Source of the DNA: Macrostomum lignano
Taxonomy: Eukaryota
Direction: 5' to 3'
Assembly: GCA_002269645.1 (NCBI GenBank)
Contig: NIVC01000593.1
Span: 57,454 to 121,453, forward strand
Length of the DNA stretch: 64,000 nt
The notes below the pieces were generated by a model. That model was not told where the DNA came from, searched no databases, and worked only from the letters and a program-made list of their open reading frames with translations. Shown here piece by piece: positions 7,345-14,069 of this stretch. The first letter of the stretch is position 1. Each line of letters starts with the position of its first letter. A program made the position numbers and the translations under genes.

Positions 7345-7435
7345 GTATAATAATAATAATAAACTGATTTTTTTCTTTGGTGATTGGTGCACTATGCGAG
7401 AGCTTTGTAAATACTATAAGCAATTTTAAAAATTT

Positions 7436-7879
7436 ATGCCTAAAATATATGTTGTAAAAATGTCTCCAGCGAAAGATCGAGGTTTTAAAAAGAAAAAGAA
7501 GAGCATTCGTAAAAAGAAGAAATCTATTAGAAAGATTAATAAAAAGCAACAAGGTTATGGTGTCGTAAATTGGTTAATTAATCATTTACCATTTGAAGCA
7601 CATTTACCCGGCGGATATCAGTTTTGTGGTCCAGGTACGCAACTGCAAGCTAGGCTAGCAAAAGGACAACGAGGAATTAATCGGCTTGACAATTTGTGCA
7701 TGCTTCACGACGTGGCCTATGATAAAAATTCTGACGTGCAAGAGAGGTTAAAAGCTGATAAGCTATTAGAATCTGGTGCACGAGAGATTGCCCACGATCC
7801 GTCTACTGGTTGGAAAGAAAAACTAGCTGCGAAGTTGGTTACCAAGGTTATGCAAGTTAAGCAACGCTTTGGTGCTTGA
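7436..7879 (+). CDS. Parvovirus-type phospholipase A2 domain protein (PLA2X) with Lys-rich N-terminus
   Basis: Ca-loop-like HLPGGYQFCGPGT and catalytic HDVAY motif. The start may be 7460. Confidence 0.9.
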   Translation: MPKIYVVKMSPAKDRGFKKKKKSIRKKKKSIRKINKKQQGYGVVNWLINHLPFEAHLPGGYQFCGPGTQLQARLAKGQRGINRLDNLCMLHDVAYDKNSDVQERLKADKLLESGAREIAHDPSTGWKEKLAAKLVTKVMQVKQRFGA

Positions 7880-7881
7880 AA

Positions 7882-8571
7882 ATGCAGCAGCCATACAATA
7901 TGCAACTAGCTCACGATTCTACATTTATTATTGCTGGACCTTCAAACTCGGGTAAAACTGAATGGACGTTGCGTTTGTTGACTGAACGAAAAGAATTATT
8001 TGATAAAAAACCGTGCCGTCTTGTTTGGTGCCATGGATCAAGTTTGAAACCAGACGATCAACAACGAATTAGAACATGCTGGCAAAAAAGCGGTCTTGAC
8101 CCTATTGTTTTTGTACCCGAATTCACACCACAGATGATTAATCGTTTTTTACCACACGATTTGGTTGTTGTTGACGACTTGCAAAGCGAGATTGCTAAGT
8201 TGCCAGAATTTACTAGTATGTTTACAAAGCATGCGCATCATATCCCTTTGACTTGTCTGTACCTTTGTCAAGGTCTTTTTAACAAGTCTGATCCAGAAGC
8301 ACGCATGCGAAGTTTATCAGCTAGTTATATTTGTCTAACTCGTAGTGTGCGCGATCGAACCACAGTTGAACATCTCGGTCGACAAATGTATCCGCGTAAT
8401 AGTAGGTTTCTAGTGAATGTGTATGAAGACGCAACAAATAACAAACCTTTTTCATATTTATTCATTGACCTGCGGCAAGTGACACCAGATTTTTTACGAT
8501 TGAGAACAGGAATATTTTCTGGTGATGAACAAGTTGTCTATACTCGTGAATGTGATGCAAAGTTTGTGTAA
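7882..8571 (+). CDS. A32/FtsK-like genome packaging ATPase
   Basis: Walker A GPSNSGKT, Walker B LVVVDD, and downstream HH...LCQ and R...SYI motifs typical of Polinton ATPases. Confidence 0.94.
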   Translation: MQQPYNMQLAHDSTFIIAGPSNSGKTEWTLRLLTERKELFDKKPCRLVWCHGSSLKPDDQQRIRTCWQKSGLDPIVFVPEFTPQMINRFLPHDLVVVDDLQSEIAKLPEFTSMFTKHAHHIPLTCLYLCQGLFNKSDPEARMRSLSASYICLTRSVRDRTTVEHLGRQMYPRNSRFLVNVYEDATNNKPFSYLFIDLRQVTPDFLRLRTGIFSGDEQVVYTRECDAKFV

Positions 8572-8628
8572 TATTATTATAAGCAAATTATAAACTGTTG
8601 TCAATATTAGTTTGTGTTTTATTTCAAA

Positions 8629-11104: not shown

Positions 11105-12245
11105 GGAAATTGAAGAATTTTTGACGGATGCTTTTTTTAACTTGAACAGGCCTACTTCATTTAGTGGTAACAAGACTATACTTGTTCGTGAAGTACGTAA
11201 AAAGTTTCCACAGATTACGAACAAAGTTGCAAAGCGCGAAGTTGATAATTGGGTGCGATCAACAAATGAGCATCATTTATTTCGAAAAACACGACGAAAC
11301 TTTCCAACTCCAAAAATTAGTGTGCCACCAGTTGCAAAGTTTCAGTTTCAAATCGATTTGGCAGATTTACCTCAATACAAGACGGAAAATCGAGGTTATC
11401 GTTACATACTTGTTCTTATCGACTGTTTTACTAGAGTTGTACGACTAAGACCATTGCGTACAAAGAAGCCTTCAGAAGTTAGTCAAGTATTACTAGAGAT
11501 TTTTCGAAGTGGTTTTAAGCCTGTTTATTTACAAGGTGATGCTGGTATGGAGTTTCTCGGAAGAGCTACACGTCAAATGCTGAAACAGGAAGGAGTTCGA
11601 TTTTTTGTTAGCCAAAGCAATTACAAGGCAAGCATGGCTGAACGATTTATCCGCTCGTTAAAGGAACGTCTATTACGATACTTTCGAGCAAAAAATTTAC
11701 CTCGATGGTTTGACATTTTACCGCAATTGGAAGATAATTTCAACTCTAGTCCTCATCGATCCTTGAGTGGAGAAACACCAAAACGGGTAGAGACAGACCC
11801 GCATTTACAAGGAATTTTGTGGGACAAAATGTTTGCGAAGTCGTACACTAAAAAGAATGAGAATAAATTTAAAGTTGGTGATTGGGTTAGAATTACACGA
11901 CGTCGAGGAACATTTGAAAAAGGATACACTACGACTTGGAGTAATTCAAAATATCGCATTCATCGTGTACACTTGACAGACCCGCCAATGTACGAATTAG
12001 TGGACCCTGAAGATGGATTTGAAGTGCTGAAAGGAAGGTTTAACCAAGCGGAACTAATGTTGGTAAACGAGACAGATGAAACACCTAATGAAATTGAAAA
12101 AGTTATTGAAACTGATCGAGCGAAAAATGGAAGTCGTCTGTATCTAGTAAAATGGAAAGGTATGCCAATCTCAAGAAGTCAGTGGTTAAACGAAAATGAT
12201 CTTGACGCAAAGACTGCTAAACTATTTTCTAAAGTGTATAAGTAA
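11085..12245 (+). CDS. Retroviral-like (rve) integrase with C-terminal chromodomain
   Basis: Intact D-D-E triad (QIDL, QGDAG, AERF), YILVLIDCFTR, FKVGDWVRI SH3-like region, and C-terminal EIEKVI...YLVKWKG...QW chromodomain. Confidence 0.97.
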   Translation: MMKRVRKEIEEFLTDAFFNLNRPTSFSGNKTILVREVRKKFPQITNKVAKREVDNWVRSTNEHHLFRKTRRNFPTPKISVPPVAKFQFQIDLADLPQYKTENRGYRYILVLIDCFTRVVRLRPLRTKKPSEVSQVLLEIFRSGFKPVYLQGDAGMEFLGRATRQMLKQEGVRFFVSQSNYKASMAERFIRSLKERLLRYFRAKNLPRWFDILPQLEDNFNSSPHRSLSGETPKRVETDPHLQGILWDKMFAKSYTKKNENKFKVGDWVRITRRRGTFEKGYTTTWSNSKYRIHRVHLTDPPMYELVDPEDGFEVLKGRFNQAELMLVNETDETPNEIEKVIETDRAKNGSRLYLVKWKGMPISRSQWLNENDLDAKTAKLFSKVYK

Positions 12246-12286
12246 CACATGAATTGGGATTGCATGACGAAGAGAAGACTGTTGAA

Positions 12287-12745
12287 ATGGATCCTATTTT
12301 TGCTTTTTATTCTGGTCCGAATAGATCTGCTGAAGGTGGAGGTGGATATGGCATTCCTGTTTACGAAGGTTACGGTTTTTTGTCAAATTTGGCGGACAGA
12401 TTGGTGTATCCTGTACTACGCAACGCAAAGAAAGATTTCTTGGATCGTGGTCTGGAGTATTTGAAAAGTGCGACAGCAAAAATTGGTATGGGTCGGAAGC
12501 GTCACTTGGACACAGAATCGAGCGAAGAGATGTTTAATACAACTGCAGTTTCGAGACCAAAGCGAAGGAAAAGAACCAGTGGAGTGGCTATAAGCTTAGG
12601 AAAGAAGAAACGGCAAAAGAAACGACGAACAAGACAGTGTGGAAAGGGACGCGTGAACAAAAGAAAACGCAAGAAGACCGGTGGTATAGGAAAACGTCGA
12701 ACTGCTACTGCAAGCAAGAAACTTTTTAGTCTGTTTGAAAAGTAG
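12287..12745 (+). CDS. Basic virion core protein (pVI/pVII-like)
   Basis: GxG motifs (GGGYG|IPVYEGYG|FLSNL), an amphipathic helix FLSNLADRLVYPVLRNAKK, and an Arg/Lys-rich C-terminus; lies directly upstream of the MCP. The start is probably MDPIF at 12287. Confidence 0.75.
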   Translation: MDPIFAFYSGPNRSAEGGGGYGIPVYEGYGFLSNLADRLVYPVLRNAKKDFLDRGLEYLKSATAKIGMGRKRHLDTESSEEMFNTTAVSRPKRRKRTSGVAISLGKKKRQKKRRTRQCGKGRVNKRKRKKTGGIGKRRTATASKKLFSLFEK

Positions 12746-12746
12746 C

Positions 12747-14069
12747 ATGAACCATTTGCTTGGACCTGATATTGCTGCTCTTAAAAGTGAATTGTCGCTA
12801 TTTGATCAAAGTCCTGTTCAGTTTAGTGTTTTGGATAATCGATATACTAACATTCAACCGCAACATGGTATTACAAAAGGATCACCTATCGAATTTGAAG
12901 TTGTGCCTGCAGGCGATTTGTATTTGGATCTACAAGAAACTGTGCTCACGGTATGCTTCAGCGTTAGTGATAGTGAAGGTGAACCTATAGATGCAACGAA
13001 AAATTTTGTTTGTTTGAATAATTTGGTTATTGGAACATTGTTTGAGGACGTTCAATTTACTATTGGCGATACTGTAGTTGAAGGTGGTAGTTTTATGTAT
13101 CCATACAAGGCAATGCTTCTTACATTACTGGAATATGGACATACAGCTCAGAAGGCTGGTTTACTGCCGTGGGGGTTTTACAAGGATACAGCTGGTAAAA
13201 TGAATGCAACAAGTGAAAACGATGGACGAACAAAGAGGCAGGCGCTCATTGCTAACAATAGGCGGTGCACTGTATCGGGGCCGTTATTCTTGGATTTGTT
13301 TCGTCAGCCTCGGTATCTACTATCAAAGACACCACTACGGATCAAGCTCATACCGGCAAAAAGTAAATTTGTCCTGAGCGGGTCAACATTAGAAGCTGGT
13401 GCGGTTTTAAAAGACTATGAGATCAAGTTTTTGCGTGCAGAACTACGATTGCGGTTTGTTCAACCCTCGCCGAGTGTTATCAGTGCACATGCTCATGGAC
13501 TTAAAAGTCACAATGCATTATATCCGCACCGAAGTCTAAGCCTTGGTACGTTTACTATACCCCGAGGATCGTCTAGCCATACGCATGAAAATTTGTTTCC
13601 TAGTGGGGTACCACGGCTTTTATTGATGGCAATCGTAAGCAACAAGGCATTCAATGGAAGCATGGACACAAATCCGTTCAACTTTGAGCATGCAAATGTG
13701 AGCAGCATTGGTGTGTTTGTGAATGGAGACTCGGTACCATCGCGTCCGCTGCAGACAAACTTTGGAGATGATTGTGTGACAGAGTATAATTTTTTGCTAC
13801 AACAGCTTGGAATCTATCTACAGGGACGAGATATTGGATTTAATATGCTGGATTACGCCAATGGTTACTCAATTTTTGCATTCAGTCTTGGAAGTGAACC
13901 TGGTGTCGGACGGGGAGTGCAACTGTATAAGGAAGGAAATGTAAAACTAGAGTTACGCTTCAATGCTGCAACTAGTACCGTGTACAACGTCATATTTGGA
14001 GGTATATTTGACAAGCAACTGCAACTGACTGAACTTCGCGACATTGTTCCTGGCACAGTATGGAAGTAA
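12747..14069 (+). CDS. Major capsid protein (double jelly roll)
   Basis: KSELSLFDQSPVQFSV...SPIEFEV....LYLDLQET, NLVIGTLFEDVQ, YPYKA, WGFYKD, LFRQPRYL, FNFEH, GYSIFAF: typical Maverick MCP motifs; ORF is intact. Confidence 0.95.
   Translation: MNHLLGPDIAALKSELSLFDQSPVQFSVLDNRYTNIQPQHGITKGSPIEFEVVPAGDLYLDLQETVLTVCFSVSDSEGEPIDATKNFVCLNNLVIGTLFEDVQFTIGDTVVEGGSFMYPYKAMLLTLLEYGHTAQKAGLLPWGFYKDTAGKMNATSENDGRTKRQALIANNRRCTVSGPLFLDLFRQPRYLLSKTPLRIKLIPAKSKFVLSGSTLEAGAVLKDYEIKFLRAELRLRFVQPSPSVISAHAHGLKSHNALYPHRSLSLGTFTIPRGSSSHTHENLFPSGVPRLLLMAIVSNKAFNGSMDTNPFNFEHANVSSIGVFVNGDSVPSRPLQTNFGDDCVTEYNFLLQQLGIYLQGRDIGFNMLDYANGYSIFAFSLGSEPGVGRGVQLYKEGNVKLELRFNAATSTVYNVIFGGIFDKQLQLTELRDIVPGTVWK

Follow-up and report, generated by a model that had tools for sequence, protein, structure and literature searches.

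A conserved TATAAGC box before the structural genes of a Macrostomum lignano Polinton and an element-encoded TBP-like protein as its candidate reader

A 64,000-nucleotide (nt) stretch of Macrostomum lignano DNA (assembly GCA_002269645.1, contig NIVC01000593.1, positions 57,454 to 121,453 of the forward strand) was analysed and is called the window here; all positions refer to it. A Polinton with inverted ends occupies positions 1 to about 14961. The structural genes of this element carry a conserved promoter-like motif, TATAAGC. The idea that the motif is read by the element's own TBP-like protein is supported indirectly, by the predicted TBP fold of that protein and by the co-occurrence of boxes and TBP clades. 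We consider it likely that the motif is a TATA-position late promoter at which the element's TBP brings host TFIIB and RNA polymerase II (Pol II) to six late units. These observations bear on how capsid genes are regulated in animal Polintons and on whether any viral early-to-late programme operates there.

The TATAAGC box in the window and in sister families

The first-pass annotation had listed eight TATAAG sites within 7415–13931, all on the forward strand, and a near match, GATAAGC, at 7757. All of these coordinates and 8-mers were confirmed. The absence of TATAAG from positions 1–7400 was also borne out, on both strands, and one reverse-strand copy was found inside the structural block, at 9451. 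The full window showed no enrichment (16 versus 24.3 in shuffles), so the signal is local. TATAAG occurred 8 times in 7400–14623 against 1.6–1.8 expected, and the suspected excess of TATAAGC amounted to 6 against 0.35. TATAAGC was the first-ranked 7-mer of this region under order-1 and order-2 Markov models.

A formal check with shuffled controls found the positional enrichment that a promoter motif should have. The 160-nt windows before gene starts made up 20% of the block and held all eight TATAAG sites (binomial p = 3e-6). Among 3000 shuffles that preserved amino acids and codon usage, none placed TATAAG before at least six of nine genes (maximum 5; observed 8) and none contained six TATAAGC (maximum 3), while 7 reached the total of eight TATAAG.

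The MCP families of the host genome were named A–H (about 100, 81, 75, 70, 67, 45, 31 and 30% identity); the copies of family F (L020, L039) were too decayed to be scored. Silent sites were saturated among families A–E, with an identity of 21–36% at 4-fold sites of the MCP gene. The orthologous box was nevertheless kept in 30 of 30 cases, before PLA2X, penton, pX, the small open reading frame (ORF) overlapping the integrase start, core and MCP in each of the five families. It was an exact TATAAG in 27 cases and a one-change variant in three (TATATGC twice, TATTAGC once). The flanks were unrelated and the reading frame across the box varied between families. The profile of the 30 sites was (C/G/T)TATAAG(C/T)AA, and the distance from box to ATG was mostly 41–65 nt. 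The MCP box stood 124–165 nt before its ATG and was always written (T) ATA AGC, within a basic stretch of variable sequence. In families B–E, 21 of the 24 BTATAAG fell in upstream windows, which made up about 25% of the block. The promoter reading of the motif is strongly supported by this conservation against saturated silent sites together with the positional enrichment.

The earlier claim of a site before nearly every structural gene held for the six conserved boxes and failed for the sites at 7757, 10016 and 13926, which were not conserved in the sister families and are probably not promoters. The site at 7757 (inside PLA2X) had no counterpart there, and that at 10016 (inside pX) was confined to family A. 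The site at 13926 encodes Tyr-Lys within LYKEG, a conserved MCP peptide. The site at 10852, assigned to a small ORF or the integrase, was upheld; it more exactly serves the 62-residue ORF at 10916. The ATPase, the 229-residue ORF (ORF229), integrase and protease had no conserved box, and each comes second in a tightly coupled gene pair; the sites at 7757, 10016 and 13926 belong to this class.

Four of the five families lacked canonical TATAWAWR in the late block, and all five had it in their early regions. An A at −1 of the late box was found at 2 of 35 sites (p about 0.005); the late boxes avoid this A, which would make TATATAAG. An A-rich peak at +29/+30 (15 and 16 of 30 sites) was too weak for an initiator call. 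Contig ends near 12263 had a 30-nt overlap with the neighbouring contig and were rejected as start-site evidence.

The TBP-like protein and the boxes of other Polinton lineages

All five families A–E encode the TBP-like gene. The model of its product, built from an 8-sequence alignment, had a mean predicted local distance difference test score (pLDDT) of 95 and showed the two-repeat saddle of the TBP family; a single-sequence fold (pLDDT 46) was unusable. Foldseek matched the model to TBP structures with E = 7e-10 and a TM score of 0.75. The 4691–5245 product is predicted to be a full TBP fold with a rebuilt DNA-binding face. Its nearest Atlas clusters were largely viral TBP-domain proteins, and a protein search returned 76 clusters related to these TBPs, at the protein level and without genomic context. 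In family C (L013:3704-5110, reverse orientation; L140), the TBP frame runs without a stop into a domain that resembles a P-loop deoxynucleoside kinase by sequence.

The first ATG of the TBP-like frame is at 4820, and starting there would lose the first strands of the fold. The splice acceptor directly before the frame was conserved and in frame in L011, L013, L017, L128 and L138 (families B–E). Contigs of run X8 carried one identical extra 5′ sequence at the acceptors at 5400 (PolB) and 6847 (dUTPase). This sequence occurred 58 times in the host genome, ahead of unrelated sequence in the loci examined, and looks like a spliced leader. Together with the G of the acceptor it ends in ATG, which would be in frame with the TBP gene if joined there. 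Spliced leaders can provide a start codon (PMC9851317). The host leader may supply that of the TBP-like gene, although X8 and the other runs, none of them recorded as RNA, are only guessed to be RNA and the joins seen were at 5400 and 6847, not at 4690.

The motif-by-clade count covered 32 representatives, related within each clade, with upstream windows making up 21–27% of each block; only the A–E motif had been fixed in advance. BTATAAG lay in upstream windows in 29 of 32 cases in families A–E. The corresponding figures were 12/12 for TATAAATA in families G/H, 27/38 for YTTAAGM in family J, and 19/26 for YAYGCAAA in clade M, a metagenome clade. The TBP of families G/H is highly diverged; one of the two sequences matched Pfam with E = 7e-5. 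Family J, found by a Pfam search of the same host genome, has a third TBP and CTTAAGAA boxes. This family (L147–L166) has a very high copy number, with more than 100 Pfam TBP matches, and a PC4 gene at its left end. Among 82 related loci from public contigs, four encoded a clade M TBP and carried TA(T/C)GCAAA at their structural genes. No altered box was significantly enriched outside its own clade; the nearest case was YAYGCAAA in family J (3/4, p = 0.054). The presence of three boxes in one host argues against a single host factor.

Polintons lacking a TBP-like gene had been proposed as a test of the motif. The 14 elements without a detectable TBP had TATAAA, with 48 of 86 occurrences in upstream windows. 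Of these TBP-less loci, only L041 and L084 were bounded by inverted repeats, and both had TATAAA and no TBP match. None of 67 accessory frames from eight TBP-less loci matched TBP; six matched PC4. A PC4-domain gene lay near one end of the TBP-less loci L041, L064, L084, L108, L118 and L122. An unguided word ranking (99 MCP loci in 48 clusters, of which 31 with at least 4 ORFs were scored) recovered the box in families A–E and G/H, partly in clade M, and not in most TBP-less elements. Scans of viral contigs with queries A2, A1 and A7 gave no relatives, and A3 gave 2 loci. In L045 and L050 the clade M late box is often ATGCAAAT/G, which resembles the POU octamer; the TACGCAAAC variants do not fit that octamer.

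The DNA-facing residues were compared in yeast TBP numbering mapped on the host TBP (L145); L114 presumably faces box position 7 and V122 position 6. All four TBP clades shared F99P and kept E188 and F190. Families A–E had Q114, Y116, T122 and N205, clade M had Q114, F116 and Q122 (Q114 and Q122 in 55/55 database relatives), family J had L114, Y116 and S122, and families G/H had N114, F116 and I122. These residues were fixed inside each clade and different between clades. Of the four intercalating phenylalanines, families A–E kept F190 and F207, with Y at 116 and P at 99. D186 and E188 of the acidic C-terminal stirrup, which we take to be the TFIIB contact, were present in families A–E. With G at box position 6 (A–E, M, J), residue 122 was T, Q or S; with A there (G/H), it was I. 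Residue 114 was Q where position 7 is C (A–E, M) and L in family J (position 7 A). The pairing of a polar residue 122 with G6 and of Q114 with C7 is suggestive, among four clades only. The N-terminal repeat of TBP contacts the 3′ half of the box (PMC1636458), and the 3′ half is the one altered in A–E and M. In the TBP tree, A–E, M, J and G/H formed separate groups; its branches were long and partly unsupported, and it gives no order of events.

In the proposed mechanism, the early genes would be expressed by host machinery from ordinary TATA boxes, partly with spliced-leader trans-splicing. One of them encodes the TBP. Its changed DNA-facing residues would allow the 3′ half of the box to contain G and C, and its acidic stirrup would still bind TFIIB. 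(C/G/T)TATAAG(C)AA would be the TATA-position core promoter of the late genes, heading six units: PLA2X-ATPase, penton, pX-ORF229, small ORF-integrase, core, and MCP-protease. The element TBP would recruit host TFIIB and Pol II to these boxes, with RNA starting about 30 nt downstream and presumably at a late stage. The model predicts that this TBP prefers TATAAGCAA to TATAAAAG and to the boxes of other clades.

We are evenly divided on a broader proposal. Polintons may have a widespread one-protein late switch, in which minimal viral TBPs (shared F99P) changed specificity repeatedly and every lineage has a TBP/promoter pair of its own (TATAAGC, CTTAAGAA, TAYGCAAA, TATAAATA), insulated from the others even in one host. 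If true, nature would have produced several mutually orthogonal TBP-TATA codes for Pol II, and there would be evidence that animal Polintons run a staged programme of virion production. The DNA-facing surface of TBP is among the most conserved in eukaryotes. Natural TBPs apparently reading G/C-containing boxes would show how its specificity can be changed and, with their boxes, could be used as orthogonal promoter-factor pairs for Pol II. The conserved box and the matching TBP also provide handles on where the late 5′ ends lie and which factor marks the switch.

Competing explanations and known systems

Several observations weigh against a late promoter read by the element's own TBP. The PLA2X box is only 21 nt from the first ATG in the window copy. 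The TBP gene of family J itself carries the late box CTTAAGAA. Families G/H encode a TBP but have a canonical box, so an altered box cannot be predicted from the presence of a TBP. For J, M and G/H the motif was chosen after looking at the sequences. The clades are related to one another, and four of them are too few to establish that residues and bases covary. In L170, an out-of-sample M-type element, the strict M motif was found before 0 of 2 structural genes, with one-mismatch variants only. In an upstream-ATG test, a start near +30 received no significant support (10/739 versus 6/1240, p = 0.065); the family B core start was set 9 nt too far, so that a true ATG was counted as upstream. The four runs used were assembled contigs, which cannot show starts or levels. 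The cavities of wild-type TBP accept G at positions 3 and 6 (PMC1636458), and TATAAG alone therefore needs no new reader.

The last point also supports the main competing explanation, which we consider unlikely. The box would be a real promoter, but a weak TATA variant that host TBP/TFIID or a TRF2-like host paralog reads; the element TBP would do something else (decoy, host shut-off), and the boxes would have drifted by shared descent. Structures in which wild-type TBP binds the G(-26) and C(-25) variants (PDB 1qn5, 1qn3), the canonical box of the TBP-encoding families G/H, and a box spacing equal to ordinary TATA spacing agree with it. However, C at position 7 forces Hoogsteen pairing, which avoids a leucine clash in wild-type TBP (PMC4402545), and CTTAAGAA and TTATGCAAA are far from TATAWAWR. 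The three lineage-specific boxes in one host also speak against this explanation, as does the avoidance by late boxes of the canonical register used by early genes.

Late promoters of baculoviruses have the sequence (A/G/T)TAAG. A helper virus with a baculovirus/nudivirus-type polymerase could read the box and start inside this core, as giant viruses read virophage promoters. TATAAG and CTTAAG both contain DTAAG, ATAAG was present in 27 of the 30 conserved sites, the TAAG core precedes structural genes as in baculoviruses, and helper-dependent promoters of virophages and Polinton-like viruses are listed in the literature. Unlike a baculovirus, the element has no viral RNA polymerase. The 5′ TA and 3′ CAA are conserved beyond TAAG, the TAYGCAAA and TATAAATA clades lack TAAG, and TATATGC and TATTAGC break it yet occupy orthologous places. 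In 4 of 30 units, out-of-frame ATGs lie 9–17 nt from the beginning of the box, which suits a start further downstream. A baculovirus-like start inside TAAG is thus disfavoured, and we regard helper reading as very improbable. Searches for LEF-8 and LEF-9 in the host genome were blank, with equally silent controls, and the element itself has no LEF polymerase.

In another explanation, also very improbable, the motif is a by-product of stop codons, codon choice or 3′-end signals of the preceding gene. In several families, sites do coincide with stop codons or with the ends of coding regions, and LYKEG explains 13926. But the word stays while the frame across it changes from family to family (intergenic, frame 1 or frame 2), it also precedes PLA2X after an intergenic gap, and the codon-preserving shuffles never reproduced its placement.

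A late promoter read by the element's own TBP would work like the herpesvirus TATT system, by analogy and not as a member of it. Late TATT promoters of beta- and gammaherpesviruses are read by the viral TBP mimics BcRF1, ORF24 and UL87 (PMC4893493). That system likewise involves a nuclear DNA virus using host Pol II, a modified box in the TATA position of structural genes, a viral TBP-fold protein, and early genes with canonical TATA. The herpesvirus mimic is a domain in a six-protein complex with about 10% identity, whereas the Polinton TBP is stand-alone, about 185 residues long and recognisable by sequence (about 20% identity, Pfam). The Polinton box is TATAAGC instead of TATT, and its change, known here from sequence, lies in the 3′ half and differs between lineages. 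No genes for the six-protein viral pre-initiation complex were found among the element's ORFs by ORF list and Pfam.

Poxvirus intermediate promoters have a TAAA core (PMC5294985). These promoters and the TBP-like factors of nucleocytoplasmic large DNA viruses (NCLDV) share with the Polinton an AT-rich core that would be stage-specific in the Polinton too, and the protein clusters nearest to the Polinton TBP are largely viral; poxviruses and NCLDV differ in encoding their own polymerase and transcribing in the cytoplasm. The yeast laboratory mutant TBPm3 has altered specificity at box position 2 (PMC1636458). As in TBPm3, few substitutions on the DNA-facing sheet would change the box read, but the natural Polinton lineages differ mainly at positions 5–7.

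The element resembles alpha-type adintovirus Polintons/Mavericks, for which 10.1101/697771 and PMC8502044 give terminal inverted repeats, protein-primed PolB, an rve-chromo integrase, ATPase, protease, capsid genes and PLA2X; of PolB, the window copy has a putative N-terminal remnant. Most metagenome Polintons sampled differ from it in having no TBP and using TATAAA. In the accessible text of these two papers TBP appeared only in figure keys and the word promoter did not occur; supplementary maps, which may label TBP, were outside its scope. The terms TBP and promoter do not occur in PMC11161782, PMC11131425 and 10.64898/2026.06.19.733378. The literature searched contained no report of a Polinton TBP or late box, with subscription journals and supplements outside that scope. 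Within it, the combination of an altered late box and an own TBP appears to be new for Polintons.

Gene layout and other features

The features of the element are listed in Table 1. Its terminal inverted repeats, the left one cut by the window, and its integrase with Pfam rve and Chromo domains are Polinton/Maverick features. The left flank, where one arm of the 6-bp target-site duplication of Polintons would lie, reads N. Pfam matches in the element were PLA2, Adeno_PX, rve, Chromo, dUTPase and TBP, with a weak Peptidase_C5. The MCP, penton, ATPase and protease module was present, and metagenome elements had homologues of it in synteny. Pfam gave no names for penton, core and ATPase, which are labelled after the first-pass annotation and gene order.

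Table 1. Coordinates of the Polinton features in the window.
Feature	Position	Strand	Evidence and remarks
Left terminal inverted repeat	1..83		95% complementary to 14858-14940; window start cuts repeat, N to left
Splice acceptor (pyrimidine tract + AG), likely spliced-leader acceptor	4660..4690	+	directly before TBP-like frame
TBP-like gene, 185-codon open frame (4691-5245)	4691..5248	+	Pfam TBP E=2e-7; fold model; Foldseek
PolB (protein-primed) N-terminal remnant	5472..6374	+	matches start of long PolB frames in other copies/families
TATAAGCA box, PLA2X(-ATPase) unit	7415..7422	+	ATG +21; exact in 4/5 families, TATATGC in fifth
Structural block: PLA2X, packaging ATPase, penton, pX, 229-residue ORF, small ORF, integrase-chromo, core, MCP, cysteine protease	7436..14623	+	ORFs, Pfam, MCP relatives
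TATAAGCA box, penton	8578..8585	+	ATG +51; exact in 5/5 families, 46-54 nt before ATG
TATAAGCA box, pX(-229-residue ORF) unit	9621..9628	+	ATG +54; exact in 5/5 families
TATAAGCA inside pX, doubtful	10016..10023	+	family-specific; no counterpart in families B-E
TATAAGCT box, small ORF (10916-11104)/integrase unit	10852..10859	+	ATG +64; exact in 4/5 families, TATATGC in fifth
Small ORF, 62 residues, Cys-Cys motif, overlaps integrase start	10916-11104	+	previously unannotated; counterparts in families B, C, E
TATAAGTA box, core gene, overlaps integrase end (Tyr-Lys-stop)	12237..12244	+	ATG +50; TATAAGTA in 4/5 families, TATTAGC in fifth
TATAAGCT box inside core ORF, MCP(-protease) unit	12589..12596	+	ATG +158; exact in 5/5 families
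TATAAGGA in MCP (LYKEG), probably coding chance	13926..13933	+	TAT AAG in 3/5 families; TAC AAA, TAT AAA in others
Right terminal inverted repeat and element end	14858..14961		inverted-repeat match; contigs of two runs diverge at 14961

Most of PolB is gone from the window copy, where a loose contig end at 5400 is leader-like. Long frames continue the same N-terminus in other copies and families, and were identified as PolB by their size, their position and their similarity to one another, and not by Pfam. Many copies in the host genome share the spacing of the window copy at PolB, and some are about 3.1 kb longer there. A GGN-repeat run lies at the PolB break (6160–6290). L130, L132 and L134 are short deletion derivatives in which the PolB start is fused to the MCP end, with TBP and protease retained.

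In the left part of the element, a 39-nt tandem repeat was found (1674–2600). A GT..AG intron at 3588–3660, seen in contigs of two studies, joins the 3282 and 3650 frames. The joined product was conserved beside TBP in families A–E and weakly resembled NCLDV DUF2738/Pox I3-like proteins (Atlas score at most 0.90).

L170 is a Polinton fragment (TBP, penton, penton-like) in the record of a bacterial metagenome-assembled genome and was probably mis-binned; its TBP gene has the canonical TATATAAG. Outside the element, the window contains a host exon with a cyclic-nucleotide-binding domain at 18500–18883 (Pfam E = 5e-7).

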